In this document: piece after piece, positions 19,458-61,192 of the stretch
Numbering within the stretch: position 1 is the stretch's first letter
Layout: each line of letters opens with the position of its first letter
Notes under the pieces: model-generated
Told to the model about the DNA's origin: nothing
Database searches by the model: none
What the model saw: only the letters and a program-made list of their open reading frames with translations
Made by a program: the position numbers and the translations under genes
Source of the DNA: an uncultured Chloroflexia bacterium
GTDB taxonomy: Bacteria > Chloroflexota > Limnocylindria > Limnocylindrales > CSP1-4
Direction of reading: 5' to 3'
Assembly: GCA_963712745.1 (NCBI GenBank)
Contig: CAVQJC010000011.1
Span: forward strand, 320,001 to 384,000
Length of the DNA stretch: 64,000 nucleotides

Positions 19458-19482
19458 GCGGCGACGAGGAGCGGGCTAGGCT
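19454..19482 (+). promoter_or_regulatory. Putative sigma70-type promoter TTGAGC-N17-TAGGCT for STAND gene 2
   Basis: Same -35, -10 and spacing as 15962-15990; the -35 overlaps the paralog 1 stop codon. Confidence 0.65.
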
Positions 19483-19519
19483 GGCACTCACGCGGGACGC
19501 TACGTGCGAGGGAGGGCGG

Positions 19520-27792: not shown

Positions 27793-27821
27793 GTCCTCCT
27801 CGTCGTGTGATGGCGCCGGGC

Positions 27822-30614: not shown

Positions 30615-32315
30615 CTATGCCTGACCTCCCGCCAGCGCAGGCTCGCGCGGACCCAGCGCCTTGCAGACCCCAGCCGGACAGGTCCCCTCGACCACGTGCG
30701 CCAGGTATTCGTCGCGGAAGTGGCGCAGCGTAGAGAGCACCGGGTTGGGCGCGGTCTGCCCCAGGCCGCACAGTGACGTGCGGCGTACCACGTCGCTGAG
30801 CTGTTCCAGCCTGTCCAGGTCGGCGGCCGTGCCCTCGCCACCGCAGATGCGGTCGAGGATCTCCTGCAGTCGCACCGTACCCAATCGACACGGCGCGCAA
30901 AGCCCACAGCTCTCGGCAGCGCAGAAGCTGATGAAGTAGCGGGCGATGTCCACGATGCAGGTCGTGTCGTCCATCACGATCATGCCGCCGGATCCCATGA
31001 TCGCCCCGACCTCGCGCAGCGAGTCGTAGTCGATGGGCAGGTCGAGATGGGCTGCCGGCACGCAGCCGCCTGAGGGCCCGCCCATCTGCACCGCCTTGAA
31101 CTCCCGGTCGCGGGGCAGGCCGCCACCGACCCCGAACACGATGTCGCGGATCGTCGCCCCCATCGGCACCTCCACCAGGCCGGTGTTCTTCACCTGGCCC
31201 GCGAGGGCGAAGATCTTGGTGCCCTTCGACCCTTGCGTCCCGCGCTCGGCGAAGGCGGCGCCGCCTTCGGCCACGATCAGCGGGATGTTCGCGAACGTCT
31301 CGACGTTGTTGATGATCGTCGGCTGGCCCAGGTAGCCCCTCGCTGCGGGGTACGGCGGCTTGGGTCGGGCGATGCCTCGATGTCCCTCCAGCGAGGCGAT
31401 CATGGCAGTCTCCTCACCGCACACGAACGCCCCGGCGCCCTCACGCACCTCGATGTCCAGCGAGAACCCACTGCCCAGGATGTCGTCGCCCAGCAGACCC
31501 CATTCTCTCGCCTGGTCGATGGCCAGCCGCACGTGATGCACGGCGATGGGATACTCGGCCCGGACGTAGATGAAGCCCCTGGTGGCCCCGACTGCGAAGG
31601 CGGCGATGATCATGCCCTCGATGACGCTGTGCGGGTCGCCCTCCAGCAGGGCCCGATCCATGAAGGCGCCCGGGTCACCCTCGTCGGCGTTGCAGATGAG
31701 GTACCGATCCCCGGCGAAGAAGCGCTTGCAGATCTCCCACTTGAGCCCGGTCGGGAAGCCACCACCACCGCGGCCGCGGATGGCGCTCGCCTTCACCTCC
31801 TCGACGACCTCATCGGGCTGCATATCGAGGAAGGCCTTGGCGGCTGCCTGGTAGACGTCGCGCCCGATGGCGTCTTCGATGCGCTGCGGATCGACCCGGC
31901 CGACGTTGCGCAGCACCCGCTTGGTCTGGTGCTGGTAGAAGGGGATGTCATGCATGTGCGCCATGGTCTCGTCGCGCTCGTAGCACAAGCGGGCGACGAC
32001 CTCGCCTTTCTGCACGGTCTGGGAGATGACGTCGGGCACGAACTTCACCCGGTTGCGGCCGTAGAGGACATCGCCGGGTTCGATGACGGCTACTGGGGCC
32101 ATGGCGCACAGGCCGTGGCAGCCAGTGGCGACGATGTCGACCTCCTCTTCAAGGCCGGCGAGAGCGACCTCCTCTCGGAACGCCGCCTCGATCTCCCGGG
32201 CTCCGATGGCGAGGCATCCGGTGGAGCACACCAGCACCCGCTTCCTTCCCTCCGCGGCAGCGACCAGCCTGTCGCGGAGCGCGGTCAGCTCGTCCGAAGA
32301 CCCGATCCTGGTCAT
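30615..32315 (-). CDS. nuoF: NuoF/HylB-like NAD(H)- and FMN-binding subunit of the formate dehydrogenase complex
   Basis: N-terminal thioredoxin-like 2Fe-2S domain (CSTGC..GCHGLC), GRGGGGFPTG, NADEGDPGAFMD, GAFVCGEET, GGPSGG and ESCGLCAPCR. ATG 32315 overlaps the nuoE stop. Confidence 0.93.
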   Translation of the reverse strand: MTRIGSSDELTALRDRLVAAAEGRKRVLVCSTGCLAIGAREIEAAFREEVALAGLEEEVDIVATGCHGLCAMAPVAVIEPGDVLYGRNRVKFVPDVISQTVQKGEVVARLCYERDETMAHMHDIPFYQHQTKRVLRNVGRVDPQRIEDAIGRDVYQAAAKAFLDMQPDEVVEEVKASAIRGRGGGGFPTGLKWEICKRFFAGDRYLICNADEGDPGAFMDRALLEGDPHSVIEGMIIAAFAVGATRGFIYVRAEYPIAVHHVRLAIDQAREWGLLGDDILGSGFSLDIEVREGAGAFVCGEETAMIASLEGHRGIARPKPPYPAARGYLGQPTIINNVETFANIPLIVAEGGAAFAERGTQGSKGTKIFALAGQVKNTGLVEVPMGATIRDIVFGVGGGLPRDREFKAVQMGGPSGGCVPAAHLDLPIDYDSLREVGAIMGSGGMIVMDDTTCIVDIARYFISFCAAESCGLCAPCRLGTVRLQEILDRICGGEGTAADLDRLEQLSDVVRRTSLCGLGQTAPNPVLSTLRHFRDEYLAHVVEGTCPAGVCKALGPREPALAGGQA

Positions 32316-32794
32316 CGGTACCGCTCCAGGATCCCCGTGACCTTGTCCGCGGTCACGCTGCCGAAGTAGTCGTGGCCGATCATCACTACCGGCGCCAGGA
32401 AGCATGTGCCCAGGCAGGCCACGGTCTCGATGCCGTAGCGGCCATCTTCGGTGATCTCCCCTTCGTGGATGCCAAGGCGAGACTCCACGGCATCCTGGAT
32501 CGCTTGGCGGCCCCGCACGTGGCAAGCCGTACCACGGCACACCCGGACGGTATTGCGGGCGTGTGGCTCGAGATAGAACTGCGCGTAGAAGGTCGCGACC
32601 CCGTACAGATGGCTGAGTGGGACACCCGCAACGGCGCTCGCCTCGAGCAGCACCTCTTCCGGCAAATAGCCGTAGGTGCCCTGGATCGCCTGGAGCAGCG
32701 GTACGACGTGCCCATGACCGATGGGCGCCATCTCATCGAGGACGCGCCGTGCCGGAGCCAGGTCTACCGTGTCGGCGACCGAAGATCCGACCAT
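32312..32794 (-). CDS. nuoE: NuoE/HylC-like 2Fe-2S subunit
   Basis: GVATFY, VCRGTACH and ACLGTC motifs. The start is estimated; the track ORF extends to 33073. Confidence 0.9.
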   Translation of the reverse strand: MVGSSVADTVDLAPARRVLDEMAPIGHGHVVPLLQAIQGTYGYLPEEVLLEASAVAGVPLSHLYGVATFYAQFYLEPHARNTVRVCRGTACHVRGRQAIQDAVESRLGIHEGEITEDGRYGIETVACLGTCFLAPVVMIGHDYFGSVTADKVTGILERYR

Positions 32795-33109
32795 CGAGGG
32801 GCAGCGTATCTCGAGGCTCTGACCTCGGGGCGTGGCAAAGGTCCCGAGTCCTCGGGATATGAGGCACCATTCCGCTCGTAGCGTCTGGGAACCAGGGCTG
32901 GATGGGACGCTCCGGTCGACCATCGCGTGGACCCGTCGGAGGTCGACGCCCGCTGCCCGTCGCCACACGAGGGGCAGGTTCGACCGTCGCGCGAGGTGGG
33001 CCGAACGGCCCTGCGATTCGGGCCCGCGCAGCCTAGCCAGCCTAACCGTTTGCCTGACACTCTGGGTCGACAAGCCTTCTGATCAGCGCTCTGCACGAGG
33101 TAGGCTCGG

Positions 33110-33475
33110 ATGGGGTCGTCGACTGAGGCGTCGATGCTCGCTGCGCTCGAGCAGGCCGAGATGGCCGCTCGCGAGCGCCGGCTTGCCGCGTCCAGTGAGG
33201 CGGAGGCGGTCCTGTCCGCAGCGCAGGCGCGTGCGTCTGAGATCGGCGCGAGCGCGGGTCGACGTGTGGACGATGCCCTGGCCGACTTACGCCACTCGGC
33301 GGAAGCTGCGGCTGACGCGGCGATCGTGGATCTCGAACGGGTCGCGGCCAAGCGTGCAGGTGCGAGCACGAGCCGCGCACGGGACGATCGGGTCGTCGGG
33401 AGCGCTGTGGCCATGGTCGTCGCCCGCGTCCTTGGCGAATTGTCCTCCGACCCCGACGACGGGGATCGAGCCTGA
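33110..33475 (+). CDS. A/V-type ATPase peripheral-stalk subunit H/G
   Basis: Ala/Glu/Arg coiled coil; first gene of the operon, coupled to subunit I. Confidence 0.65.
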   Translation: MGSSTEASMLAALEQAEMAARERRLAASSEAEAVLSAAQARASEIGASAGRRVDDALADLRHSAEAAADAAIVDLERVAAKRAGASTSRARDDRVVGSAVAMVVARVLGELSSDPDDGDRA

Positions 33476-35425
33476 TGCTCGTCCCCATGCGCCGCGTCGA
33501 GATCGTCGTCCCGCGCTCGACCGCGAGCGCCGCGCTGAAGCTGATACACCGCGCGGGCGCTGTGCACCTCGAGACCTTCGACCAGCTGGACGGGGCGCAC
33601 CCAGGTATGTTCGTCATCCCGCACCTCGAAGACGGCAGCGAGGCATCCATCGAAGGCGACGGTCGCTTCAAGGAGCCGCTCGAGGAGGTCGCCAGACTGG
33701 GTGCGCTCATCGGCACCGTACCGGTGGGCCGTGATCGACTCGAGGTGGCGTGGGCGCTCGATGACGAGGCCCTGATCGCGGCCGCCGACCGATTGCGGCC
33801 CGTCCAGTCAGCGGCGGACAGGCTTACCGGCGAGCGAGTCCGTGCCGTCGCCGACCTCGAACGGATCGATTCCTACCGCCATATCATCGATGGCCTCTCG
33901 GGTGCCGTGGGCCACCTGCCGAGGCTCCGCGGCTACGCCGCGACCGGAATCATCGTGAGCACGCGACACCGCGCGCTCGTGGGGCTCATCAGCGAGGAGC
34001 TCGAAGCCATCACCGACGGTCGCTGCGAGGTCGATCTCGGCCGACCTCCTGGACCAGCGCACCGCCGCCGTCCTGCTCTATCCGGCTGCCAGGGCCGGTG
34101 AGGTCTCCGATGTCCTGGGCGGGCGGGAACTCGAGGAGGTCAGCCTGCCGGCCGATCTCCAGGGTGTGCCCTTCGACGAGCTAGGGCCCCGGATGGCGGT
34201 CGAGGTCGAGCGGCTCCGGGCGCTCATCGCCAAGCTCGAGGACCAGTTCGAGCATCTCGCGATCGAGCACCGGACCAACGTGTCGGCGCTGCGACTCGTC
34301 CTCAGTGACCGTGTGGCCGAGCACCACGAGCTGCACCGTGCCACGCACTCGGACCATCTCACCGTGTTCACCGGCTGGGTACCGGCCGCCGAGCTCGACG
34401 ACCTCAGGAGGGAGCTGGCCGACGGCCTCGGGGAGCGCATCCTCGTCATCGACCACGGGAAGGCGTCGGCGCCCGGGCAGGAACCGCCGGTGGCCGTCAC
34501 CAACGGACCCATCTCACGAGCGTTCGAGCCGCTCTCGCGTTTCGCGGCCGTGCCGCGCTACGGGACCATCGACCCGACGCCGCTGCTGGCGCTGACCTTC
34601 CCGGCCTTCGTGGGCCTGATGATCGGCGACGCCGGCTACGGCCTGGTCATGCTGGCGCTCCTCGTCATCTTCCGGAGGCGCATGATGCGCTCACCACTGC
34701 TGCGCAAGGTCTGGCCCATCGGCCTCACGATGGCCCTCTCGACGATCTTCTTCGGTGTGCTCTTCGCAGAGGCCTTCGGCGAGACCGCCCGTCACGTCCT
34801 GCACGTCGAGCCCATCCTCTTCGACCGCGCCGAGCCCGAGTCGGCGATCATCATCATGCTCGTGATCGCCATCACCATCGGATTCGTCCAGGTCGGGCTG
34901 GGATTGGCGCTGGGCGTATGGAACGCCGCCCAGGTGGATCACCGGCGTGAGGCTGTCGGGCGCGCGTCGCTCCTGCTCGGGCTCGTGACGGTCGTCATCA
35001 TGATCGCCGCGACCGCCGGGCTCCTGCCGGGCGAGGTGATCTTGATCGCCGTCGCAGCGCTCGTCGCCGCGGTCGTGATCGCGGGGCTGTCGATGGGTAT
35101 CGCCGGGCCCGTCGAGATGCTGGGCGTCATGGGCAACGTGCTCTCGTACGCGCGGTTGATGGCCGTCGCCTTCGCGGGGGTCATGCTCGCGCTCGTTGCC
35201 GACGAGCTGGGTAGCCTCATGCCCAGCCTCATCTTCGGGATCCTCGTGGCCATCGTGCTGCACTCGCTCAACCTGGCTCTGGGCGTCTTCGACGCCTCCG
35301 TCCAGGGGCTGCGACTGCACCTCGTCGAGTTCTTCACCAAGTTCGTCGAGCCGGGGGGTACGCCGTACGCGCCCTTCACCTCGGCGCTCGGAGTGAGCCA
35401 TAGCGCTCAGGTAGATGGGAGGTAG
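33475..35425 (+). CDS. atpI: A/V-type ATPase subunit I (a); +1 frameshift near 34033
   Basis: MLVPMRRV..; PRYGTIDPT, GDAGYG, SYARLMA (essential Arg) and RLHLVEFFTKF. Removing one base joins ORFs 33475..34101 and 34166..35425. Confidence 0.92.
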
Positions 35426-35437
35426 CCAGAATGCTGG

Positions 35438-35650
35438 ATGAAGGAGCTGCACGAATCGATCGGCGCGGCACTCGCGATCGGGCTGAGCGCGCTGGGAACA
35501 GCCTGGGCTCAGGCCCGCATCGGCGCGGCCGGAGCCGGGGTATTGGCCGAGAAGCCGGAGATGCTCAATAGCATCTTCCTGATCCTGGTGTTGCCGGAGA
35601 CGATCGTCATCCTCGGCTTCGTCGTGGCCGCCATGATCCTGCTCCTGTGA
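35438..35650 (+). CDS. atpK: A/V-type ATPase proteolipid subunit K (c), single hairpin
   Basis: AQARIGAAG..AEKP..LPETIVILGF. Confidence 0.95.
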   Translation: MKELHESIGAALAIGLSALGTAWAQARIGAAGAGVLAEKPEMLNSIFLILVLPETIVILGFVVAAMILLL

Positions 35651-35653
35651 CAG

Positions 35654-36289
35654 GTGGTCGAGGACATCCTGATGGGGGTCGAAGGGATCATCGCGATCAT
35701 CGAGCGTGAGGCAGACCAGGAAGCGAAACGGATCGTCGCGGACGCTGAGCGTCAGGCAGGCGAGATGATCGCCGGCGCTGAAGCCGAGGTGCAGGCCCAG
35801 GTCGAGGCGGCCATCGAGCGTCTTGGACCAGAGATCCGCGCCGCGTCCCAGCGCCGCATCAACGCCGTGCGCCTGCGCATCCTGGAGGATCGCGCGCGCG
35901 GCGACGCGGCCCGATTGACCGCGGTTTTCGACGCCGCGGAGGAGCAGGTCACGGCGATCGCGGGTGGGGCCGAACCAGCGCGCTGGTCATCCGCGCTGTC
36001 AGCGCTGTGCGTCGAATCGCTGCGCTCGATCGGCGAAGGTGCCTCGGTGAAGGTGCGCGCCCGAGACATCGATGTGGTCTCGAGCGTAGCCGCTACCTGG
36101 CACGCCGACGTCATGGCTCTCCCTGATGGCGACGAGCCGGGTCTCGTGGTCAGCTCGAGCGACGGTCGTATCGAGGTGGACGCGCGCCTGTCGGTCCGGC
36201 TGGGTCGGGCGCGGTCGCTGCTGGCCGAAGCGGTCGCGCAGCTGCTGCGCCTCGAGGTGGCGGACCAGGAGCAGGCATCGGCGGGGTAG
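35654..36289 (+). CDS. atpE: A/V-type ATPase subunit E
   Basis: N-terminal coiled coil, C-terminal G.VV.S.DGRIEVD motif and operon position (alternative ATG at 35672). Confidence 0.85.
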   Translation: MVEDILMGVEGIIAIIEREADQEAKRIVADAERQAGEMIAGAEAEVQAQVEAAIERLGPEIRAASQRRINAVRLRILEDRARGDAARLTAVFDAAEEQVTAIAGGAEPARWSSALSALCVESLRSIGEGASVKVRARDIDVVSSVAATWHADVMALPDGDEPGLVVSSSDGRIEVDARLSVRLGRARSLLAEAVAQLLRLEVADQEQASAG

Positions 36290-36292: not shown

Positions 36293-37201
36293 ATGGGCTA
36301 CGACTACGGCAACGCCCGGATCGCGGCCAGGCGGGGCCAGCTGCTCGATCGGGCTGCCATCTCACGCCTCGGCGACTCCGCGACGGCCTCGGCGATGGTG
36401 GCGCAGCTGGAGCGTTCGGCGGACTGGGCGCCGATCCTGCGGCGGGTGGCGCCGCTCGGGACCGACGCCACCGCGGCCTTGGAGACCGCCATCGAGTTCC
36501 ATCGCTCAGCCCGCCTCGGAGCGCTGCCACCGTTCTACGACGGCCAGGACCGCCGCTTCGTCGAGACGCTCGTGCTGCCCCTGGACGCTGAGCGGGCGGT
36601 GGCCGTGCTGCGACGCCGACGTGCGGGAGAACCAGCCGAGGCGATCGCGACCAGCTCCGTGCCAGGCGCCCTGCTCGACGCATCCGCGCTCGCCGCGATG
36701 GCTCGCGCACCCGGCCCGGCAGCGGCCCTTCGCCCGCTCGTGGACCGGGGAGTCATCGCGCGTGCCGACGCGCTGCCGATCATCGCGGCCGAGGCTCGCG
36801 GGGCCCGCAGCGCCGAGGTGGAGTCGCTGTTGCTGGCGGCCATCGATCGCGCGCGCTGGGAACGAGTCAGCGTCGGCGGCGGCGAGGCCGCGGCGCTGCG
36901 TCGGCTGCTCGAGCACGAACAGGAAGCCCGGGAGGCGACCGTCGTCGAGCTCGGGAAGGCCGGTCCGACGCTGGCCACGATGCTGGACCGCACGACCCGC
37001 CTGGCCCGACTGGACACGCTTGGCGCGCTCGGTCGGCGCGACCTCCTGGGCATCGGGGCCGTGGCGGGGTACGTGGCTGCGGTCGAGGCCCAGGCGATCC
37101 GCCTGCGCGCCATGGTCGCCAAGGTCCGGGCGCGCTGGACGGCCGAGGACGCCACACCGTACCTGGCCCGGAACGAGAGGTCGACATGGCTCGTGTGGTG
37201 A
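36293..37201 (+). CDS. atpC: A/V-type ATPase subunit C (d)
   Basis: YDYGNARI.ARR..LL N-terminus and operon position. Confidence 0.85.
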   Translation: MGYDYGNARIAARRGQLLDRAAISRLGDSATASAMVAQLERSADWAPILRRVAPLGTDATAALETAIEFHRSARLGALPPFYDGQDRRFVETLVLPLDAERAVAVLRRRRAGEPAEAIATSSVPGALLDASALAAMARAPGPAAALRPLVDRGVIARADALPIIAAEARGARSAEVESLLLAAIDRARWERVSVGGGEAAALRRLLEHEQEAREATVVELGKAGPTLATMLDRTTRLARLDTLGALGRRDLLGIGAVAGYVAAVEAQAIRLRAMVAKVRARWTAEDATPYLARNERSTWLVW

Positions 37202-37518
37202 TCCTCAGCGCCCCGGGTCAAGCCGACGGCTATCGCCTCGCCGGTTGCTCCACCGTCGTCGCGTCGCCCGGAGCTCAAGCTGCCGCGTCCCTGCGCCACC
37301 TTGCCGCAACCTCTGACATCGGCGTGCTGCTCGTCAGCGCCGACCTCTGGGCGAGCCTCGACGACCGCCTGCGAGGTGACGTCGAGCAGCTGGCCCGACC
37401 GGTGGTCATGCCCATCCCGGAGGGCGAACGCACGCCCGGGGCGGCTCGAGTGCAGCTGCTCGGCGAGATGTTCCAGCGGGCGATCGGCTTTCGCATCCAG
37501 ATCAGCGGCGGAGAATGA
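37186..37518 (+). CDS. atpF: A/V-type ATPase subunit F
   Basis: GYRLAG, P.VM.IP and RAIGF motifs. Confidence 0.88.
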   Translation: MARVVILSAPGQADGYRLAGCSTVVASPGAQAAASLRHLAATSDIGVLLVSADLWASLDDRLRGDVEQLARPVVMPIPEGERTPGAARVQLLGEMFQRAIGFRIQISGGE

Positions 37519-40500
37519 TGAGCGACGAGCGTGCTCGCGGGACGGACGGAGCGGCGATCGTCGCCGCCAGCGGCCCGGTAGTGCGCGCGCGCATCCCGGC
37601 CTCGGCGGTCATCGGCGAGGTCGCGCGCGTGGGTCCGCAGCGACTGCTTGCCGAGGTCATCCATGTCGACGGCGAGGTCGGCACGCTCCAGGTCTACGAG
37701 GAGACCCAGGGGTTGCGCATCGGGGATCCGGTGTACCTGAGCGGCGCGCCCCTCGTCGCGTGGCTGGGTCCCGGCATGCTGGGACGGGTCTACGACGGGC
37801 TGCAGCGACCTCTCGATGCCTTCGCCGCGGCGGGCATCTGGCTGCTCCTGCCGGGAGCCACCGCGGATCCCGCGCGTGACGGCGCGTCGGGCAGGGACGC
37901 CACGCCCGCCGCGGTCGCTCTCGGCGACGCTCGCTGGGACTTCCGTCCGACCGCGCAGCCGGGCCAGACCGTCGGTCCCGGCGACATCATCGGCGAGGTG
38001 ACCGAGGGCGGCCTGCGTCACGCGGTGACCGTGCCGCCGGGGGTCGGCCCCGGCCGCTTGAGCGCGCTCGATGCGGGCGCCTACACCGTGCACGATGAGA
38101 TCGGCAGCCTCGATGGGTCCTCGGGTCCGGTCGCGCTTCGGCTGGCCCATCCGTGGCCGCTCCGGTCGGCCCGCCCGGTAGCACGACACCTGCCCCTGGA
38201 CCGTCCGCTGGTGACCGGCCAGCGCGTGATCGACATGCTGTATCCGGTCGCGCGCGGCGGCACGGCCGTCATCCCGGGCGGGTTCGGCACCGGCAAGACC
38301 GTCGTGGAACAGCAGCTCGCCCGCTGGTCCGACGCCGACGTCGTCGTGTATGTCGGCTGCGGAGAGCGTGGCAACGAGATGGCCGAGCTCCTCACGACGT
38401 TCCCAGAGCTCCAGGATCCACGCTCGGGCGTGCCCCTGCTCGAGCGAACTGTCCTGATCGCCAACACCTCGAACATGCCTGTGGCCGCACGCGAGGCCTC
38501 GGTCCAGCTGGGCATGACGATCGCTGAGTACTTCCGTGACCAGGGACTGCACGTCGCGTTGCTCACCGACTCCACCTCGCGCTGGGCTGAGGCGCTGCGA
38601 GAGATCAGCGGACGGCTCGAGGAGCTGCCGGGAGAGGAGGGCTTCCCGGCCTACCTGGGCAGCCGGCTGGCGAGATTCTACGAGCGCACCGGTCAGGTCG
38701 AAACGCTCGGCGAGCCTGCACGCACGGGTTCGGTGACACTCGTCGCCGCGGTCTCGCCACCGGGCGGCGACTTCTCCGAGCCTGTGACCCAGGCGAGCCT
38801 GCGCCTGGCGGGCACGTTCTGGGCGCTAGACCCGGAGCTGGCACACGCACGTCACTTCCCTGCCATCGGCTGGGACCGGTCCTACTCGCTGTACGTCGAT
38901 GCACTCGCGGCCTGGTATGCCGATACGCTGGACCTCGGTTGGTGGGAACTCCGCTCGACCGCGGTGGAGCTGCTGGCGCGTGAGAAGGGGCTGCTCGATA
39001 TCGTTGCGCTCGTCGGCGCCGACGCCTTGCCCGACCATGATCGTGCGCTGTTGGAGGTTGCGCGCCTGCTGCGTGAGTCGTTCCTCCAGCAGGGCGCATT
39101 CGATCCGGTCGATTCGGCCCGCCCGCTCGACGAGCAGGTGCTTCTGCTGGACGCGGTGCTCGCGGCTCAGGGGTACCTGGATCGTGCCCTCGACGCCGGC
39201 GAGACCCTCGAAGCTGCCCTCTCGTCCAAGGCCATCGCCGATCTGCGGCGCGCCAAGGAGCTCAGTGGCCTTGACGTCGCGGGGCGACTCGCCGCCCTCG
39301 CCGCCCGCCTGCGCGAAGACGGGAACGCGGCGACCCAAGACCTCGCCAGTGACGGAGGGGAGGGTGGCGCTGCGGCTGGCGAGGATGCCGATGTCACGAC
39401 GCAGCCCGAGCCCCCGGCTCCGGCCGACGGCGCCGCTCCGGGCACCGAGCACCCAGCGGATGTACCGGAGCCAGAGCCTACGCATCGGGGTGAAGCGCGT
39501 GCCGACGCGATGCCTCGGCAGCTGTCAGCCCGAAGTGGTCCCGCGTCCGCCGTCAGGTCACTCTCGGAGCACCGCCTGACCGGGGCTGATCGTCTCGTAG
39601 GCCCACTGCTCGTGCTGCGCCGGTCGCCACGCATGGCACTCGGCGAGGACGTCACCGTGCGCGCCGGTGACGGCACGCTTCGGCATGGGCAGATCGCCGA
39701 GCTCGACGAGGACGTCGCCGTCATCCAGGTCTACGAGGGTACCGCTGGGCTGGACCTCGAGTCTGCCCAGGTGCAGCTCTCCGGCGACACGTTCCGGCTG
39801 GGCGTCTCGGGCGCCATGCTCGGCCGGGTGCTCGACGGGCGTGGCCGCCCCATCGACGACGGCCCGTCGATCGTGCCGCTGCGGCTCGCGGACGTGAACG
39901 GCGGCGCCATCAACCCGGCGTCGCGCGATCACCCGGAGGACTTCATCGAAACCGGCATCAGCACGATCGACCTGATGGCCTCGCTCGTGTGCGGTCAGAA
40001 GCTGCCGATCTTCACCGGCTCCGGCTTGCCGGCCAACGAGCTGGCCGCCCGCATCGCGACCGGTGCGCGCATGCTGGGCGAAGAGCGCTTCGTGACGGTC
40101 TTCGCGGCCATGGGCATCACGCGCCGTGAAGCGGACGGGTTCCGTGACGCCTTCGCCAGCTCCGGCGTGCTCGACCGCATCGCGGTGTTCCTCAATCTCG
40201 CTGACGACCCGGCCATCGAGCGACTCCTGACACCCCGCTGTGCCCTGACGCTTGCCGAGCATCTCGCCTTCGAGCTCGGGCTCAATGTCCTCGTCGTGAT
40301 GACCGATGTGCTCGCCTACGGCGAGGCGCTGCGCGAACTGTCGACCGCGCGCGAGGAGATCCCCGGTCGCCGAGGCTACCCGGGCTACCTGTATACCGAT
40401 CTCGCGACGTTGTTCGAGCGTGCCGGCCGCGTCCGTGGCCTGCCGGGCTCGGTCACAGTGCTACCGATCGTGACGCTCCCCGACGATGACATCACCCACC

Positions 40501-40985
40501 CCATCCCCGACCTCACCGGGTACATCACCGAGGGCCAGATCGTGCTCTCACGTGAGCTGTGGGGCCGATCGATCGCACCGCCTGTCGACGTCCTGCCCTG
40601 CCTCTCGCGCGTCATGAACGCGGGCATCGGCGAAGGCCAGACGCGTCCGGAGCATCGGATCGTAGCGGATCAGCTCTACGCTGCCTATGCGCACGGCCGC
40701 TCGCTGCGGCAGCTCGTGACGGTCATCGGAGAGGCTGCGCTGAGCGACAGCGAGCGCGGCGTTCTGGCGTTCGCAGATGCCTTCGAGCATCGACTCGTCA
40801 GCCAGGGACGTGAGCGACGAACCCTCGACGAGTCATTCGACGCCGCCTGGGCCATCCTGCTTGAGTTGCCCGACGAGCAGCTCACCCGCATCCCGGCCAA
40901 CGTCCTTGCCCGCCGCCGGGCCAGCCGAGCACGCAGCGCTGCGAGCGAGGACCATACCGATCCGCCAGCGAGTCCGGCGCCGTGA
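37515..40985 (+). CDS. atpA: A/V-type ATPase catalytic subunit A read in frame into subunit B (A-B fusion, 1156 aa)
   Basis: A: QVYEET, GGFGTGKT, GCGERGNE, DSTSRWAEA, SPPGGDFSEP. Then an acidic, Pro-rich linker of about 80 aa. B: GQKLPIF, PGRRGYPGY, HPIPDLTGYITEG. No in-frame stop between them. Confidence 0.9.
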   Translation: MMSDERARGTDGAAIVAASGPVVRARIPASAVIGEVARVGPQRLLAEVIHVDGEVGTLQVYEETQGLRIGDPVYLSGAPLVAWLGPGMLGRVYDGLQRPLDAFAAAGIWLLLPGATADPARDGASGRDATPAAVALGDARWDFRPTAQPGQTVGPGDIIGEVTEGGLRHAVTVPPGVGPGRLSALDAGAYTVHDEIGSLDGSSGPVALRLAHPWPLRSARPVARHLPLDRPLVTGQRVIDMLYPVARGGTAVIPGGFGTGKTVVEQQLARWSDADVVVYVGCGERGNEMAELLTTFPELQDPRSGVPLLERTVLIANTSNMPVAAREASVQLGMTIAEYFRDQGLHVALLTDSTSRWAEALREISGRLEELPGEEGFPAYLGSRLARFYERTGQVETLGEPARTGSVTLVAAVSPPGGDFSEPVTQASLRLAGTFWALDPELAHARHFPAIGWDRSYSLYVDALAAWYADTLDLGWWELRSTAVELLAREKGLLDIVALVGADALPDHDRALLEVARLLRESFLQQGAFDPVDSARPLDEQVLLLDAVLAAQGYLDRALDAGETLEAALSSKAIADLRRAKELSGLDVAGRLAALAARLREDGNAATQDLASDGGEGGAAAGEDADVTTQPEPPAPADGAAPGTEHPADVPEPEPTHRGEARADAMPRQLSARSGPASAVRSLSEHRLTGADRLVGPLLVLRRSPRMALGEDVTVRAGDGTLRHGQIAELDEDVAVIQVYEGTAGLDLESAQVQLSGDTFRLGVSGAMLGRVLDGRGRPIDDGPSIVPLRLADVNGGAINPASRDHPEDFIETGISTIDLMASLVCGQKLPIFTGSGLPANELAARIATGARMLGEERFVTVFAAMGITRREADGFRDAFASSGVLDRIAVFLNLADDPAIERLLTPRCALTLAEHLAFELGLNVLVVMTDVLAYGEALRELSTAREEIPGRRGYPGYLYTDLATLFERAGRVRGLPGSVTVLPIVTLPDDDITHPIPDLTGYITEGQIVLSRELWGRSIAPPVDVLPCLSRVMNAGIGEGQTRPEHRIVADQLYAAYAHGRSLRQLVTVIGEAALSDSERGVLAFADAFEHRLVSQGRERRTLDESFDAAWAILLELPDEQLTRIPANVLARRRASRARSAASEDHTDPPASPAP
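39510..40985 (+). CDS. atpB: Subunit B moiety of the A-B ORF (possible internal ATG at 39510)
   Basis: Full set of subunit B motifs; ATG 39510 is in frame but lacks a strong RBS. Confidence 0.8.
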   Translation: MPRQLSARSGPASAVRSLSEHRLTGADRLVGPLLVLRRSPRMALGEDVTVRAGDGTLRHGQIAELDEDVAVIQVYEGTAGLDLESAQVQLSGDTFRLGVSGAMLGRVLDGRGRPIDDGPSIVPLRLADVNGGAINPASRDHPEDFIETGISTIDLMASLVCGQKLPIFTGSGLPANELAARIATGARMLGEERFVTVFAAMGITRREADGFRDAFASSGVLDRIAVFLNLADDPAIERLLTPRCALTLAEHLAFELGLNVLVVMTDVLAYGEALRELSTAREEIPGRRGYPGYLYTDLATLFERAGRVRGLPGSVTVLPIVTLPDDDITHPIPDLTGYITEGQIVLSRELWGRSIAPPVDVLPCLSRVMNAGIGEGQTRPEHRIVADQLYAAYAHGRSLRQLVTVIGEAALSDSERGVLAFADAFEHRLVSQGRERRTLDESFDAAWAILLELPDEQLTRIPANVLARRRASRARSAASEDHTDPPASPAP

Positions 40986-41620
40986 CACGCCCGCGGACGC
41001 GGATGGAGTTGCTCGCGGTGCGATCACGCCTCGACCTGGCGAGGCAGGGCCGGGATCTCCTGGAGCAGAAGCGAGACGCGCTCATGCACGAGTTCTATCG
41101 TGAGGTGCGGACCGTCTACGCAGCCCACGAGGAGCTCGAGGTGGCCGCTGGCGCAGCCCGGCACGCGCTCGAAGAGGCGCGCGTGCTCCTGGGCACGGAC
41201 ACCATCTCTGCGGCCGCGACCGAGGCAGTCGGCGAGATCAACGTGGATGTACAGCTGGTGACGGTGATGGGCGTGCATGTCCCGGCCGTCAGTTCGCGCG
41301 ACCTGGTGCGCACCCCGGCCGATCGCGGCCGTGCGCCGGCGGTGTCCGGCCCGGCGCTCGAGATGGCGGCGGAGGCGCACGAGCACGAGATCACCGTCGC
41401 GATCAAGGTGGCCTCGCTGGAGGCGCGCGCGCGTCGGCTGGCTCGCGAGATCCGGCGCACTTCCAGCCGTGTCAATGCCCTCCGAACGAGGGTCATCCCA
41501 CACCTCGAGGCGGAGATGAGGGCGATCTCGCTGGCACTCGAGCAACACGAGCGTGACGACCGCTTCCGGCTGAAGCGGGTGAAGTCGCGGCGCGATCCGA
41601 CCAAGGCCAAGATCCGGTAG
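40982..41620 (+). CDS. atpD: A/V-type ATPase subunit D
   Basis: TRMELL, LLEQKRDAL, RRVNAL-like and FRLKRVK motifs; GTGA overlap. Confidence 0.93.
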   Translation: MTRPRTRMELLAVRSRLDLARQGRDLLEQKRDALMHEFYREVRTVYAAHEELEVAAGAARHALEEARVLLGTDTISAAATEAVGEINVDVQLVTVMGVHVPAVSSRDLVRTPADRGRAPAVSGPALEMAAEAHEHEITVAIKVASLEARARRLAREIRRTSSRVNALRTRVIPHLEAEMRAISLALEQHERDDRFRLKRVKSRRDPTKAKIR

Positions 41621-41940
41621 CCGGAGTGGGTCATGGCCGCCGTGCCGATGGCGTAGAGCGCCGCGACGACCGGCTCCGGTCCGGATCGGGAATCGCCGGG
41701 CGATATCTCGGCTCTACGTGGCCGACGCCGCCAAGGACCGGTCGCGACAGCGGCCGGTCACCGCCCACCCACGGATGTGCGCGGGCGGCCGGGGACGGGC
41801 ACCGTGACGGCGGTCTTTCCTACCACGGCCCGACATATGGGAGGGCTCGAAGCGCGTGCGCACACCGCTGTCGCCGTCTTTCGATCTCGTATCGCTGCCC
41901 TGTCCCTGACTTCGGCACAGCCCCTACCGTCAGGGCGCGG

Positions 41941-42168
41941 CTATGACGGCCAGTTGTGCCTGTTCGCTGTCAGGAACGATCGCACCGATTGCCTCGCCGA
42001 GCCGGCCAGCTCGTCCGCCGAGTCCAATTCCTCCCAGATCGGGTCGTCGAGTGCGGGTGGCCCCTCGAGCTTCCTGAGCCGATCAACGAGGCGCTGGCGC
42101 ACAGCCTCTGCCTCAGTCCACTCCTCGATGAGTTCCGTGTACTCCTCCTCGAGACGCTTCTCAGTCAA
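41941..42168 (-). CDS. Small acidic helical hypothetical protein
   Basis: 75-aa ORF with AGGAGGTGAGG directly upstream; no recognisable family. Confidence 0.35.
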   Translation of the reverse strand: MTEKRLEEEYTELIEEWTEAEAVRQRLVDRLRKLEGPPALDDPIWEELDSADELAGSARQSVRSFLTANRHNWPS

Positions 42169-42515: not shown

Positions 42516-42781
42516 CGGCTGCGTGCCTCCTGCTCCCACATGCCTCGACGCCTACATCAACATCCACCCGATGTCACTCCGCTCTTCCCGATGGGTCAAG
42601 TGCCGGAAGTCATCGCGAGCCCACACCATTGAGTATCGGCCGGGGGCGATCGGTTTCGAACTCTGGGTCCTTTGGGCTGTCCACGCAGGGTCATAGGGTC
42701 CTTGTTCTTCTCGCCAGTCGTGTTTACGTAAGCCTTGGGTCACTGGCGGCTCGGTTCGCTGGCCCGATATCGGAGGCGAAG

Positions 42782-43567
42782 ATGAAGATCGCCGTCTCCG
42801 GCAAAGGTGGTGCCGGAAAGACCACTCTCGCGGCGCTCGCTGTCGCCGAGTTGCTACGGCGCGGTGTCAGCGTGACCGCGATCGACGCGGATCCGAACCC
42901 GTCCCTGGCGCCCTGCCTCGGCATCTCGGCAACGCCCACCCCGCTGCTGGAGATGTCCGACGAGATCGAGGCACGGGTCGGCAGCGGCGTGATCCGCCTC
43001 AACCCCCGTGTCGACGACCTCGTGGAGCGCCTCGCGGTCACCCAGGATGGCCTGCAGCTCATGGTGGCCGGCGGCCCCGTCCGTGGTGGCGCGGGCTGCG
43101 CCTGTCCGCAGAGCGTGCTGCTGCGCCAGCTGCTGGAGCACGTCGTGGTGGGCCTGGAAGAGGCGGTCGTCATCGACCTCGAAGCCGGCCTCGAGCATCT
43201 GGGACGACGAACCGCGCACGCAGCGGACGCGCTTCTCGTCGTCGTCGACCCAACCAACTCCAGCGTCGAGACCGCGCAGCGCATCGCGCGGCTTGCCGCT
43301 GATATCGATCTCCGTCGCGTGGCCCTGGTCGCCAACCGCATCGTCGATCCCAGCGACCTCGCATTCATCAAGGAACGGCTGCCCGGGCTCGAGCTGGTCG
43401 GGGAGATCCCCTTCAGTCAAGAGATCCTGGTGGCCGAGCGAGATCGACGGCCACTCCTCGACCTCGGCGGACCCGCCGCTGCGGCGGTAGCCCAGATGCT
43501 TGATGCCCTGGCTGCCGACGTGCCCATACCAGCTGCAACCGAATCCCCCGAAGAGGTGACATCGTGA
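42782..43567 (+). CDS. cooC: CO dehydrogenase nickel-insertion ATPase CooC
   Basis: MKIAVSGKGGAGKTT, DADPN, GCAC and DLEAGLEHLGR; GGAGG RBS. Confidence 0.95.
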   Translation: MKIAVSGKGGAGKTTLAALAVAELLRRGVSVTAIDADPNPSLAPCLGISATPTPLLEMSDEIEARVGSGVIRLNPRVDDLVERLAVTQDGLQLMVAGGPVRGGAGCACPQSVLLRQLLEHVVVGLEEAVVIDLEAGLEHLGRRTAHAADALLVVVDPTNSSVETAQRIARLAADIDLRRVALVANRIVDPSDLAFIKERLPGLELVGEIPFSQEILVAERDRRPLLDLGGPAAAAVAQMLDALAADVPIPAATESPEEVTS

Positions 43568-45528
43568 ACGAGCCGCAAGCCCCCATTCCGCGCACCGACC
43601 CCGCCAGCGTGGAGATGCGAGAGCGCGCCAAGGCAGAGGGCGTGGAGACGATCTGGGATCGCTACGCCGCCCTCGGCACGCAGTGCAAGGTCGGCGAGCT
43701 GGGTATCTGCTGCACGGTCTGCCACCTGGGGCCCTGCAACCTGGGTCTCCCGGGGAGCAGGCGGCCACAGGTCGGAGTCTGCGGAGCGACGATCCACACC
43801 GTTGCCTCCCGTCGCCTCGCCCGCGACATGGCTGCTGGTTCCGCGGCCCACTCCGATCACGGTCGCTCCGTCGCCTCGCTACTGCTGCAGGCCGCACGTG
43901 GAGAGGCACCGGGCTACGAGATCAAGGATGAGGCCAAGCTGGATTCCCTGGCCGACGAGCTGGGCATCGAGCGCGAGGGCAAGTCGGTCGAGCAGGTCGC
44001 CGAAGCGGTGGCACTGGGTTGCCTCGCCCAGTTCGGGGCGCAGGAGGATGGCGTTACCTTCATCCGACGCGCCCCGCAGAAGCAGCAGGAGGACTGGAAG
44101 AAGCTGGACATCACGCCCCGGGGCATCGACCGTGAGATCGTCGACGTCATGCATCGCACCAACATGGGAGTCGACGCCGACTACAAGTCCATGATCCTCG
44201 GCGGCATGCGCAGTACGCTGGCGGACGGCTGGGGCGGTTCGATGATCGCGACCGACCTTCAGGACGTCCTCTTCGGCACGCCCAAGCCAGTCCGGGCCGA
44301 TGTCAACCTCGGTGTCCTCAGCGAGGACGAGGTCAACATCCTCCTGCACGGGCATGAGCCGGCGCTGGCCGAGGCCATCGTCGACGTGGCCAACGACCCG
44401 GCCATGCAGGAGAAGGCCACGGAAGTGGGCGCCAGCGGCATCAACATCGCAGGCATCTGCTGCACCGCCAACGAGGTCCTGATGCGGCGGGGCCTGCCCA
44501 TCGCCGGCAACTTCCTGCAGCAGGAGCTGGCCATCACCACCGGGGCCGTGGAGTCGATCCTCATCGACGTCCAGTGCATCATGCCCGGGGTAACGCAGGC
44601 TGCCGGCTGCTTCCACACCGACGTCATCGCCACCTCCGAACAGGCCTTCTACCCGGGCACGATCCACATCGGCTTCGAGGCCGAGAGCGCCTACGAGGAC
44701 GCCCGCAAGATCGTAGGTCGAGCCGTCGACAACTTCGTCAACCGCGACAAGAGCCGCGTCAGCATCCCCCATCACACCATGGACGTGGTGGCCGGCTTCA
44801 CGACCGAGTCGATCAACCGGGAGCTGGGCGGTAGGTACCGGGGTGGCTACCGCCCCCTCAACGACGGCATCATGGCCGGGCGCATCCGGGGCGTGGCCGC
44901 GGTGGTCGGGTGCGATTCGCCCAAGATCACCCAGGATCAGGGTCACCTCGACCTCGTCCTCGAGCTCATCCGGCGTGACATCCTGGTGGCCCAGACGGGC
45001 TGCTCGGCCATCGTGTGCGGCAAGGCCGGCCTCCTCCGGCCCGAGGCCGCCATGGAATACGCCGGCCGCGGCCTCCAGGAGATCTGCGAGGCCGTGGGCA
45101 TCCCGCCTGTGCTCCACGTCGGCTCCTGCGTCGACAACAGCCGTCTCCTGACGGTCTGCACGCAGATGGTCAATGAGGGCGGCGTGGGCAAGGACTTCAC
45201 CGAGCTGCCGGTCGCCGCCGCCGCCCCCGGCTGGTGGTCGGAGAAGGCCATCGCCATCGGCTTCTACGCCGTGGCCTCCGGCCTCCTGACCGTGCTGGGG
45301 TCTCCGCTCAACATCCTCGGCAGCGACGCTGTGACGCAGTTCGTGACCAAGGACCTCGAGGATCTTACCGGCGGTCGCTTCGCCTTCGAGCCCGATGCCG
45401 CTGCGGCGGCCGAGCTCATGGCCGCCCACATCGATCGCAAGCGGGAGGCACTCAAGCTGCGTCCCATGATGTACGAGCCCGTGCCGGTCGCCCCCGCTCC
45501 AGTCCAAGCACCCGTCGCAGCCGCCTGA
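43564..45528 (+). CDS. cooS: Anaerobic Ni-CO dehydrogenase catalytic subunit (CooS/AcsA)
   Basis: D/B-cluster C..G..GICC..C..GPC; C-cluster HGHEP, GICCTANE, DVQCI, VGCD, TGCS and GSCVDN; SEKA. Confidence 0.97.
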   Translation: MNEPQAPIPRTDPASVEMRERAKAEGVETIWDRYAALGTQCKVGELGICCTVCHLGPCNLGLPGSRRPQVGVCGATIHTVASRRLARDMAAGSAAHSDHGRSVASLLLQAARGEAPGYEIKDEAKLDSLADELGIEREGKSVEQVAEAVALGCLAQFGAQEDGVTFIRRAPQKQQEDWKKLDITPRGIDREIVDVMHRTNMGVDADYKSMILGGMRSTLADGWGGSMIATDLQDVLFGTPKPVRADVNLGVLSEDEVNILLHGHEPALAEAIVDVANDPAMQEKATEVGASGINIAGICCTANEVLMRRGLPIAGNFLQQELAITTGAVESILIDVQCIMPGVTQAAGCFHTDVIATSEQAFYPGTIHIGFEAESAYEDARKIVGRAVDNFVNRDKSRVSIPHHTMDVVAGFTTESINRELGGRYRGGYRPLNDGIMAGRIRGVAAVVGCDSPKITQDQGHLDLVLELIRRDILVAQTGCSAIVCGKAGLLRPEAAMEYAGRGLQEICEAVGIPPVLHVGSCVDNSRLLTVCTQMVNEGGVGKDFTELPVAAAAPGWWSEKAIAIGFYAVASGLLTVLGSPLNILGSDAVTQFVTKDLEDLTGGRFAFEPDAAAAAELMAAHIDRKREALKLRPMMYEPVPVAPAPVQAPVAAA

Positions 45529-45560
45529 GCAGAGGTAGCGCCTGAGGAGAGGCAGGAGAG

Positions 45561-47745
45561 ATGTCTAGGATCATCGCCAGCGCCGCCATCCGCGGGGCGC
45601 ATGAGTACGTCCAGGAGGCTGAAGACAGCCTTAACGCCACCCTCGAATCGAGCGGCGGAGCGACGAAGCTGGAGTTCCCCAACACCGCCTTCTACCTGCC
45701 GCTGACCTATGCCCTGACCGGGCTGGACGTCAAGACCGTCGAGGAGGCCCGGGTTCCCCTGGGGATCGCCAGGGACCTGCTGGCGCCGGTCCCCAGCGAT
45801 GAGACGTGGTTGCCCTATCTGGGTGACACCCTCGACTCAGGGATCGCGGCTCTCATCGCCGAAGAGATCATCGAGGCGCTGCGCTATGCCAACGGCTCGC
45901 CACCCAACGGCATCTACCTGGGCTTCACGGACGACTCCATCCTGCGCACCCAGGGCATCAAGCTCGTTGATGGTCGGATGCCCGGGTTCGCGGCCTGTGT
46001 GGGCGCGATGCCCACCAATGAGGCGGCCGTGAAGCTGGCTCGCGAGCTGCAGGAGCGCAACATCCTGGCCTTCATCTCGAGCAGCAGCGATGGTCGCAGC
46101 ATGGCCGAGCAGCTCGACGAGGAAGGCGTCGAGATGAGCTGGGACACCTACCTGGTGCCCTACGGCAAGGAGACCAGCACCACGGTCCACGCGCTCAACT
46201 TCGCGGCCCGCGCGGCCATGACGTTCGGCGGGCTGGCTCCGGGCGATCTGGCCAAGGCCCGCCGCATCCTGCTCTACAACAAGGAACGCGTCTTCGCCTT
46301 CGTGCTTGCGCTGGGCGAGGTCGACGACCGCAAGTACGCGACTGCCGCGGGAGCCATCAACTTCGGGTTCCCGGTCATCGCGGACACGGACATCCCGGAG
46401 ATCCTGCCCAGCGGCATCTGCACCTATGAGCACGTCGTCAGCAACGTCCCCGACGACCGGCTCGTCAACAAGGCCATCGAGGTCCGTGGCCTCAAGCTCA
46501 AGATCACCAAGATCCCCATCCCGGTCTCCTATAGCGCCGCCTTCGAGGGCGAGCGCGTCCGCAAGGAACAACTGCAGGTCGAGTTCGGCCGTGGCACACA
46601 GGCCTTCGAGTACCTGCGCGCTCGCGAGCTCGATGAGATCGAGGACGGGCATGTCGAGCTCATCGGACCCGACCTCGACACCGCGGAGCCGGGTGGAGCG
46701 ATGCCGCTGGGCATCCTCATCGAGGTCGCCGGGCGCAAGCTGCAGAAGGACTTCGAGCCCATCCTCGAGCGCAACGTCCACCGTTTCATCAACGGCGCCA
46801 TGGGCGTGATGCACATCGGCCAGCGCGACCAGCCCTGGATCCGCATGTCGGACGAAGCCTTCAAGGCCGGCCTCCGGCTCCGCGACTTCGGGACCATCCT
46901 CCATGCCAAGTATCTCGAGGAGTTCCCGGCCATCGTCGACAAGGTCTCGGTCACGCTCATCACGGAGCCCAGCCGCATCGATGAGGTTCTCGAGGGCGCG
47001 CGGGTGGTCTGGAACGAGCGCGATGCCCGTGTCGCCGGCATGACCGACGAGACCATCGACATCTTCTACTCCTGCACGCTGTGCCAGTCATATGCACCCA
47101 ACCACGTCTGCATCATCTCGCCCGAGCGCCTCGGACTGTGCGGCGCCTACAACTGGCTCGACGGCAAGGTCAGCCACGAGATCAACCCCAGCGGCCCCAA
47201 CCAGCCGATCGAGAAGGGCGCCGTCCTCGACGAATCGCTGGGCATCTTCAAGAACATCAACGACTTCGTCTACGCCACCTCCAACAAGACGGTCGAGCAG
47301 GTCAGCCTCTACTCGATGATGACCGCGCCGATGACCTCATGCGGCTGCTTCGAGTGCATCATGGGTGTCGCTCCCGAGGCCAATGGCGTGGTCGTGGTCA
47401 ATCGCGAGTATCCCGACATCACGCCCCTGGGCATGTCGCTTCAGCACCCTGGCCGGGCTGGTCGGCGGTGGCATCCAGACCCCGGGCTTCCTGGGTGTCG
47501 GGCGGCTCTACCTGGCGAGTCACAAGTTCATTCCCGCCGACGGCGGGCTGGAACGCCTCGTCTGGATGCCCAAGGAGCTCAAGGACGACCTGCGCGACAA
47601 GCTCGAGGAGCGCGCGGTCGAGATCGGCGACGAGGCCTTCGTCGACAAGATCGGCGATGAGACCGTCGCTACCACGGCCGAGGAGCTGGTGGCGTTCCTC
47701 GAGAAGGTCGGACATCCGGCCCTCAAGATGCCATCGATCCTCTGA
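45561..47745 (+). CDS. acsB: Acetyl-CoA synthase (bacterial type, with N-terminal domain); +1 frameshift near 47439
   Basis: FPNTAFYLP, CTLCQSYAPNHVC, LGLCGAY and MTSCGCFEC. The C-terminus FSTLAG..GGG.QTPGF..R.VWMPK continues in ORF 47365..47745. Confidence 0.95.
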
Positions 47746-47762
47746 GCAAGGAGAGCCACACC

Positions 47763-51052: not shown

Positions 51053-51062
51053 GGAGGATGGG

Positions 51063-52432: not shown

Positions 52433-52443
52433 GGAGGACTCGC

Positions 52444-53415: not shown

Positions 53416-53426
53416 GGGGGAATGCC

Positions 53427-54239: not shown

Positions 54240-54314
54240 GCGCGTACGTGCTGGAAGCCGTGCCCGGGTGGGGCAGTGCCGGCGACCTTCGCCGCAGGCG
54301 TGTGAGGTGAGGAG

Positions 54315-57651: not shown

Positions 57652-57667
57652 TCCCGGGTCGGTGTGG

Positions 57668-58561: not shown

Positions 58562-58585
58562 CGCTCCTCCCTGTGGACCTTCAGG

Positions 58586-61116: not shown

Positions 61117-61130
61117 CGGTCCTGCGTCCT

Positions 61131-61192
61131 GTGGGAGCTGCACGGCTCGGGGCTGACGGTACACCCTGAGGCTCCCACGTCAACCGGTTGAC
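61131..61192 (-). promoter_or_regulatory. Structured leader upstream of the metF2-MT2-folD-fhs operon: 8-bp stem plus a 14-bp perfect palindrome
   Basis: GTGGGAGC (61131-61138) and GCTCCCAC (61171-61178); GTCAACCGGTTGAC at 61179-61192. Confidence 0.4.

Follow-up and report, generated by a model that had tools for sequence, protein, structure and literature searches.

Two subunits in one reading frame

We analysed a stretch of 64 000 nucleotides (nt) from an uncultured Chloroflexia bacterium (GenBank assembly GCA_963712745.1, contig CAVQJC010000011.1, positions 320 001 to 384 000 of the forward strand), below called the window. It contains an operon for an A/V-type rotary ATPase in which the catalytic subunit A and the non-catalytic subunit B are encoded together. 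A and B are normally the products of separate genes, and six chains form the A3B3 hexamer of the head. In the window a single open reading frame (ORF) on the + strand, 37515..40985, encodes a protein of 1156 amino acids (aa), labeled P0001; the ORF listing and the translation have no stop between A and B, hence a canonical head made of A and B as separate polypeptides is not what this gene encodes. The start of the fused gene overlaps the stop of the F gene (ATGA), while the stop of its B part overlaps the start of the D gene.

The Pfam scan of P0001 reported two full sets of rotary-ATPase head domains and only four ATPase families. The first set includes the A-specific barrel-sandwich insert PF16886 (aa 138–217, 8.7e-15) and a nucleotide-binding domain (aa 235–458); the second (B) set includes a beta-barrel (aa 695–748) and the V/A C-terminal domain (aa 1037–1131). 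Among NCBIfam models, NF003220 (V-type ATP synthase subunit A) matched aa 13–599 with 808.6 bits against a cut-off of 470 and NF003235 (subunit B) matched aa 688–1135 with 767.8 bits against a cut-off of 349; TIGR01043, the stricter archaeal equivalog model for A, gave 792.6, below its cut-off of 972.15. Over aa 14–584 the A half shares ∼50% identity with solved A chains, and solved B chains match the B half at about 1e-154 to 1e-157. No single chain spanning both halves was present among the 58 matched PDB sequences (E ≤ 1e-50). The original prediction, that a complete A and a complete B lie in one uninterrupted frame, is confirmed by the ORF and by both domain libraries.

The A half carries a Walker A motif, GGFGTGKT (aa about 255–262), and GCGERGNEM; GFGTGKT and GERGNEM are invariant in the alignment of fused proteins, and we take GERGNEM to be the catalytic glutamate motif of A. 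In the translated B half there is no GK[ST]; FTGSGLPANE stands at what is presumably the expected position of the degenerate P-loop of B. An extra loop in A had been predicted as well. The ∼15 residues in excess of the Pyrococcus horikoshii A subunit are indeed there, and in the alignment the region varies in length among all relatives, fused or split. As this variation extends to the stand-alone A proteins P0016 and P0017, the loop is not tied to the fusion.

The junction in independent sequence data

An assembly or sequencing artefact would mean that two ordinary genes were merged by a false indel close to where A ends. Genes coupled through ATGA fuse by one small frame-restoring indel, the I gene, 3.5 kb upstream in this assembly, contains a 1-nt frameshift, and frameshifted A and B genes occur in other genomes of the family. 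Such are locus L111 (G101:C1), where, in a genome of only two contigs, A and B are broken into several frames by either operon decay or long-read indel errors, and protein P0024, which is out of frame after about residue 460. Still, short contigs from four public runs belonging to four studies (estuary and sediment metagenomes) tile the junction at 39128–39543 and 39545–39695 with no gaps and 0–2 substitutions per piece, base 39544 lying outside the listed pieces; the contigs of these four studies carry neither a stop nor an indel at the junction. Moreover, the two halves are separated by a linker of ∼73 aa rather than by a 4-nt overlap, the ancestral ATG now reads AGG, and the fused genes recur in sequences of different archives and form a deep clade (see below). 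We regard an artefact as extremely improbable. The original prediction had also warned of many indels in this contig; among ∼45 ORFs scanned against Pfam only the I-subunit gene turned out to be split across frames.

Besides the window, 16 other sequences pass through the A–B junction in frame, thus containing both domains in one protein; they were found by protein searches, as cluster members and as a genome locus. Ten homologues are full-length (P0003, P0006, P0007, P0009, P0010, P0011, P0013, P0015, P0172 and P0173) and six are partial (P0004, P0005, P0008, P0012, P0014 and L004 from genome G006); they originate from ENA, JGI, GEM, Logan and one GTDB genome. The first search for fused homologues was limited to proteins of 635–2023 aa and produced 13 proteins besides the window's own (P0003–P0015), 11 of which cover 92–100% of the junction query. 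P0172 and P0173 are further cluster members, and L004 is the locus of G006, a genome of the same genus (84% identity), where the fusion has a linker different from that of the window. The closest relatives, G006 and 14 other main-clade sequences, are not split genes with the same intervening sequence; they are fused too. The nearest named genome locus, L023 from a Chloroflexi metagenome-assembled genome, ends at a contig end before the junction.

For the pair formed by the window and G006, the ratio of non-synonymous to synonymous substitution rates (dN/dS) was 0.155 in A (351 codons) and 0.079 in B (454 codons); these values indicate strong purifying selection on the two domains flanking the linker, as parts of the fused gene. 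Open frames are cheap in the window, with its ∼70% G+C, and an open GC-rich spacer of 220 nt alone could be due to chance. Chance does not explain why A lacks its stop in 16 further sequences as well, the frame being held despite differing linker lengths. These observations show a real, inherited, in-frame A–B fusion of an A/V-type rotary ATPase, conserved in a clade of V/A operons of high-GC sediment bacteria.

Split relatives and origin of the fusion

We sampled 401 genomes of the class; the search was a stricter first look, so that the counts are lower bounds. The family of the window contributed 137 genomes, at least 10 of which had close homologues; the genomes sampled from the other four families gave none.

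The split V/A operons of this family (loci L104–L110, with stand-alone B proteins P0175–P0294) are 62–82% identical to the window in A and B, the seven closest loci, L104–L110, showing 62–78% identity. The N-terminus of their B subunits, M-x-LS-x-RR..G.ERL.GPL, matches RSLSEHRLTGADRLVGPL in the fused protein. They differ from the window in having two genes, in different frames, coupled through ATGA or GTGA: the A stop overlaps the B start by 4 nt and B lies in frame +2, as it also does, with the same type of overlap, in the more distant operons L112 and L113. The seven closest loci thus lack the intervening sequence of the window. At the split loci B starts with M-[TRN]-L-S-x-R-R, to which the window aligns as R681-S-L-S-E-H-R; AGG at 39555–39557, the last codon of the linker, stands where the split relatives have the B start codon. 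Split A subunits end in a disordered Ala/Gly/Pro-rich tail, which is mostly short: past the common anchor it measures 0–14 aa at five loci, and at L110 it reaches 44 aa.

The fusion arose from the arrangement of the sister lineages, in which A ends in a disordered C-terminal tail and its TGA stop overlaps the ATG or GTG of B. By the simplest route, a small frame-restoring indel in the tail upstream of the overlap (e.g. +1 or −2 nt) would then place the TGA out of frame and join the tail to B. No larger event would be needed, because the ATGA/GTGA overlap, the +2 frame of B and the disordered tail of A are all present in split relatives. Afterwards the unused B start codon would decay, to the present AGG, and the tail would drift in length.

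In a tree of the A core and B (20 rows, linker excluded) 10 of the 11 fused rows fell into one clade with 98/100 support. A tree of B domains compared 16 fused rows, the window among them, with 53 split ones. Fifteen fused rows grouped in a single clade free of split B (SH-aLRT, the Shimodaira–Hasegawa-like approximate likelihood ratio test, 86), while P0015 grouped with the split proteins P0180/P0181/P0185 with support of 99. Split sisters of the main clade are P0175, P0176 and P0178. Forcing all fused rows together lowered the log-likelihood by 93.9 and was rejected by the approximately unbiased (AU) test (p-AU 0.000476). P0014 (from ENA) and P0015 (from JGI) are 87% identical over 796 aa, aligned straight across an Ala/Pro/Gln-rich junction of their own. 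The trees indicate that the fusion arose at least twice, in the main clade and in the P0014/P0015 lineage, since P0015 sits among split B proteins, a single clade is rejected and P0014 supports P0015. Branches within the fused clade measure 0.05–0.3 substitutions per site, a depth that further speaks against an error of assembly. To offset the length bias of the first search for fused homologues, the 120 best stand-alone B proteins (69–82% identical) were listed; the main fused clade has an N-terminal signature, which was seen in none of these 120.

The linker and the expression of B

The unstructured stretch covers about aa 608 to 681/686 (39339 to 39557/39572), i.e. ∼73–78 aa with bounds taken from the mapping of solved chains, close to the ∼80 aa (about 39310–39560) estimated at first from the sequence. 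Its composition is 15% P, 22% A, 12% G, 19% D+E and 8% hydrophobic residues, with a net charge of −9. The fused frame contains no stop between 39000 and 39800; two features pointed out earlier are confirmed, a TGA at 39350 that is out of frame (relative frame +2) and an ATG at 39510 (M666) that is in frame. In 11 fused sequences measured between common anchors the linker is 51–84 aa long and always in frame, and its sequence has nearly no conservation. Its dN/dS is about 0.47 for the window and G006, with synonymous sites saturated.

Such a linker raises the possibility that the ORF is real and A and B are nevertheless separate when mature, through proteolysis of the linker during or after assembly or through internal initiation of B; the head would then be an ordinary A3B3. 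The linker is long, exposed and fast-evolving, with low G+C at third codon positions (GC3), and separate A and B are tolerated in all split relatives. Also, the codon of G006 (L004, G006:C139) aligned to the ATG at 39510–39512 is GTG. Yet M666 is not conserved, no other fused protein having M at this alignment position, and no Shine–Dalgarno-like stretch is located at the usual distance from the ATG, the nearest purine-rich stretch being ∼16 nt upstream. The compared linkers share no conserved cleavage motif. The ancestral start codon of B is lost, and the frame is kept in 16 out of 16 other junction-spanning sequences with varied linkers, which would be needless if B had an efficient start of its own. 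We consider separate mature subunits to be unlikely.

A stretch GGGG(A)TGA is found ∼16–19 nt upstream of the aligned ATG (window) and GTG (G006), a weak hint of a common internal start.

We argue that B would depend on read-through from A rather than on its own initiation, because linker indels have left the frame intact in all lineages and because the old B start codon is gone.

Operon and genome context

The order of genes in the operon is G/H?-I-K-E-C-F-[A-B]-D, all on the + strand (Table 1). Apart from the fusion we take it to be the order known from Thermus, I-K-E-C-F-A-B-D. Subunits A, B, C, D, E, F, I and K were assigned by family, and the G/H subunit by its position and its likeness to an ORF of genome G049. 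The putative G/H protein, P0295, is Ala/Glu/Arg-rich and helical-looking, is encoded directly upstream of I and has 67% identity to the ORF in the same position in G049; it had no Pfam or NCBIfam match. Directly after D there is an ORF of 106 aa (41626–41946), again with no Pfam or NCBIfam match, which is either an extra operon member or not a gene.

Table 1. Features of the A/V-type ATPase operon in the window
Feature	Position	Strand	Basis and remarks
Putative peripheral-stalk G/H subunit (P0295)	33110..33475	+	121 aa; position and composition only; first operon gene
I (stator a) subunit gene, frameshifted	33487..35425	+	Pfam V_ATPase_I and NCBIfam subunit I on C-terminal ORF
K/c rotor-ring subunit	35438..35650	+	70 aa; Pfam ATP-synt_C 6.6e-17; single hairpin, one LPET carboxylate motif
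E subunit (peripheral stalk)	35654..36289	+	Pfam vATP-synt_E 1e-10
C (d) subunit	36293..37201	+	Pfam vATP-synt_AC39 1.3e-10
F subunit	37186..37518	+	Pfam ATP-synt_F 3e-9
A (catalytic) part of fused gene	37515..39338	+	aa 1 to about 608; NF003220, solved A chains
Variable loop in A	37851..37922	+	aa 113–136; ∼15 residues longer than P. horikoshii A
Disordered acidic Pro/Ala/Gly linker	39339..39557	+	aa 609–681, ∼73 aa; composition, alignment
In-frame ATG (M666) in linker	39510..39512	+	putative internal start, unsupported
B (non-catalytic) part of fused gene	39558..40985	+	aa 682–1156; NF003235, solved B chains
D subunit (central stalk)	40982..41620	+	Pfam ATP-synt_D 2e-43; TIGR00309 132.5 bits against cut-off 72.25

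The I gene has residues 1–182 up to 34032 and residues 183–638 from 34034 in the next frame, as determined by tblastn searches for which the intact I proteins of L023 and G006 served as queries. The frameshift amounts to one extra base at ∼34033 (34025–34040), at a site that is not a homopolymer.

The genome (4.2 Mb, 20 contigs, 84.6% complete) has F-type alpha/beta-like genes elsewhere. V/A-type A and B genes were found in 2 of the 49 genomes of the genus; in a third carrier, G049, the genes G-I-K-E-C-F are followed by the first 194 aa of A, where the contig ends. Genome G022 shares the upstream flank and has no ATPase genes within 14 kb. Close stand-alone B homologues bear the names Chloroflexota, ‘Chloroflexi bacterium GWC2_73_18’ and Candidatus Limnocylindrales.

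Could the operon of this genome be a decaying remnant, with the fusion tolerated since the enzyme is no longer used? The I gene, frameshifted here, is in a single frame in the same-genus genomes G006 and G049, an F-type enzyme is at hand, and the operon is patchy in the genus. Such decay does not agree with the state of the remaining genes: the fused gene is open over all its 1156 codons, as are the other ORFs of the operon, and the dN/dS values of 0.08–0.16 imply selection over most of the divergence between the window and G006. The fusion, besides, long predates this genome, and a lone frameshift could be an error of assembly. We find a remnant operon improbable, slightly more so than separate mature subunits.

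On both sides (26084–33082 and 42629–62245) the operon is flanked by genes with Pfam matches to the Wood–Ljungdahl, or acetyl-CoA, pathway: formate–tetrahydrofolate ligase (FTHFS), formate-dehydrogenase-like (FdhA-like) and NuoF/NuoE-like genes upstream, and CooC, CooS, AcsB, AcsC, RACo, AcsD, AcsE and MTHFR downstream. Judging from this neighbourhood, the enzyme is probably an ion-driven ATP synthase/ATPase of a Wood–Ljungdahl-type anaerobic metabolism, working beside the F-type enzyme.

The flanking set also has two MTHFR genes, FolD and URO-D-like methyltransferases. Two copies of formate–tetrahydrofolate ligase, at 26079–27792 and 55938–57651, are 100% identical over 1714 nt and lie in the same orientation 30 kb apart, the result of either a very recent duplication or a duplication made in assembly. 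Farther upstream, two adjacent open frames on the + strand, 15966–19454 and 19103–22942 (∼1160–1280 aa), have one AAA_16 ATPase domain each and no other domain; they look like paralogous STAND-type regulators.

Predicted head and tether

With no stop after A, ribosomes would read through the linker into B, and translation would yield one A–linker–B polypeptide of ∼120 kDa. Three such chains would close into a ring, most likely giving an (AB)3 head equivalent to A3B3.

The head of a rotary ATPase has its crown of N-terminal barrels on the side away from the membrane, and its C-terminal helical domains point towards the membrane; the height of the head to be spanned is roughly 80–100 Å. A review describes additional helices at the C-terminus of A and has the EG stalk attached, through its globular end, to the N-terminal end of B (PMC6131620). 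The tether, of at least 50 residues, is thus predicted to run outside the head, starting at the C-terminal helices of A next to the membrane and ending at the N-terminus of B in the crown, the docking site of the EG stalks; it would have to ascend the exterior because the C-terminus of A is on the membrane side and the N-terminus of B on the crown side. With the geometry given above, a chain of at least 50 Pro/acidic-rich residues can, by our estimate, easily span the height of the head. None of the 11 measured fused linkers is shorter than 51 aa, versus most split A tails of <15 aa; the minimum of 51 aa fits a lower length limit on the tether.

AlphaFold2, run with a 16-row alignment of fused proteins, returned a mean predicted local distance difference test score (pLDDT) of 47.2 and a predicted template modeling score (pTM) of 0.28, with nucleotide-binding domains below 50, and the model is uninformative on linker disorder or geometry. 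A larger alignment that also took in stand-alone A and B proteins was rejected, as MAFFT had set the A-only rows on the paralogous B half.

The tether would fix a 1:1 stoichiometry and co-assembly of the subunits, beyond what the translational coupling of the split relatives provides, and this is the likely benefit of the fusion. A neutral ratchet is possible as well.

Several observations weigh against this interpretation. The GC3 of the linker is 0.62–0.68 compared with an ORF mean of 0.83, and non-coding DNA would look alike. The in-frame ATG at 39510 could let some free B be made too. The I frameshift may be a real inactivating mutation, in which case the operon would be inactive in this strain, or an assembly error, in which case the base is wrong. 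Finally, the operon is rare in the genus, so the fusion lives in an accessory and possibly dispensable enzyme.

The evolutionary origin of the fusion is clear, while its mode of assembly and its benefit are what we infer. As a whole, an inherited fusion derived from ATGA-coupled genes, producing one chain of ∼120 kDa and, as predicted, an (AB)3 head, is in our estimate the best explanation, with a probability of about three in four. A more detailed proposal is offered tentatively, at slightly less than even odds: a single-chain protomer would give rise to (AB)3 in an ATP synthase linked to the Wood–Ljungdahl pathway, having evolved at least twice after the A tail grew, with a tether constrained in length by the whole height of the head that it has to climb; sharing the crown end with the EG peripheral stalks, it may tune assembly or the docking of the stalks.

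Search for similar fusions

The full-length protein was compared with 1.84 billion representative proteins. Only one match exceeded the single-subunit level, P0008 (1214 bits), which is a fragment of the main fused clade; every other match had ≤641 bits. Twelve of those matches were scanned against Pfam, and two A-type and two B-type proteins of about 990–1140 aa (P0026, P0035, P0059 and P0068) were found to carry inteins. A length-based screen would take them together with the fusion, as both are long single ORFs with V/A-type ATPase domains. However, each of the four is one subunit split by intein splicing and LAGLIDADG domains, whereas P0001 has two subunit sets and, in the Pfam scan, no intein splicing or homing-endonuclease domain.

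Some other proteins combined unexpected parts: tubulin-cofactor-D and B in P0069 (993 aa), E and B in P0085 (710 aa), and an E-like/A-like mix in P0025 (659 aa). These are probably chimeras of gene models or assembly. In P0023, of chimera-like architecture, the N-terminal barrel is about 180 residues from the nucleotide-binding domain.

We also considered 160 ordinary V/A loci from genomes and metagenomes: A and B were complete and split at 125 of them, 34 loci were incomplete and one had A and B on different strands. No A–B fusion was observed in these 160 loci; for metagenome contigs, only loci of 42–58% identity were among the matches listed. Two loci, L128 and L152, were first scored as fused-like and turned out to be split, with an in-frame stop inside the B alignment.

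Significance and comparison with known rotary ATPases

Few architectures in biology are as conserved as the alternating A3B3 (alpha3beta3) head with its six separate chains. A natural covalent A–B protomer would mean that the head can accommodate a tether between the bottom of one subunit and the top of the adjacent one, leaving the catalytic mechanism as presently understood unchanged. The loci described here document an evolutionary route by which ATGA translational coupling and a disordered tail lead, through a small indel, to gene fusion, and by which this has happened twice. Such proteins may also serve as a ready-made scaffold for defined A–B pairs, e.g. in asymmetric mutants and assembly studies, for which scaffolds are otherwise made by engineering. 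Annotation pipelines label fused proteins as ‘subunit A’ or ‘subunit B’ (P0015 is ‘subunit A’) and thus hide the fusion.

The original prediction had stated that no natural prokaryotic A–B fusion has been characterized. The literature agrees: a natural A–B or alpha–beta fusion was not found in open-access papers and bioRxiv, supplements being outside this scope, and the words ‘fused’ and ‘fusion’ are absent from a 2023 phylogenomic paper. Within the reach of our searches, the A–B fusion is an undescribed variant of a very well known machine.

Fusions of other rotary ATPase subunits have been described. A b–delta fusion occurs in N-type enzymes and a delta–alpha fusion in some F-type enzymes (PMC11738941, a 2025 database paper; bioRxiv 10.64898/2026.10.01.756066, a 2026 preprint on how rotary ATPases evolved), and the accessible parts of these two texts mention no A–B or alpha–beta fusion. 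Duplication and fusion of the c subunit is treated in the part available of another paper (PMC9171764). Like the A–B protein, the b–delta, delta–alpha and c fusions are products of adjacent operon genes merged into one polypeptide. They differ in that, as far as these partial sources go, stalk or rotor-ring subunits are concerned and none of the fusions links the catalytic to the non-catalytic subunit of the head.

Among well-studied enzymes, the V/A-ATPase of Thermus thermophilus (3a5c_A/3a5c_D, 3w3a, 5gar) permits comparison along both halves: aa 17–584 of the A half correspond to residues 8–555 of the 578 of its A chain, and aa 686–1131 of the B half to residues 6–459 of the 478 of its B chain. 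The Walker A motif and GERGNEM of A and the single-hairpin c subunit are further points of agreement. In T. thermophilus A and B are separate chains, whereas the protein described here joins them in a single chain through a tether of ∼73 aa.

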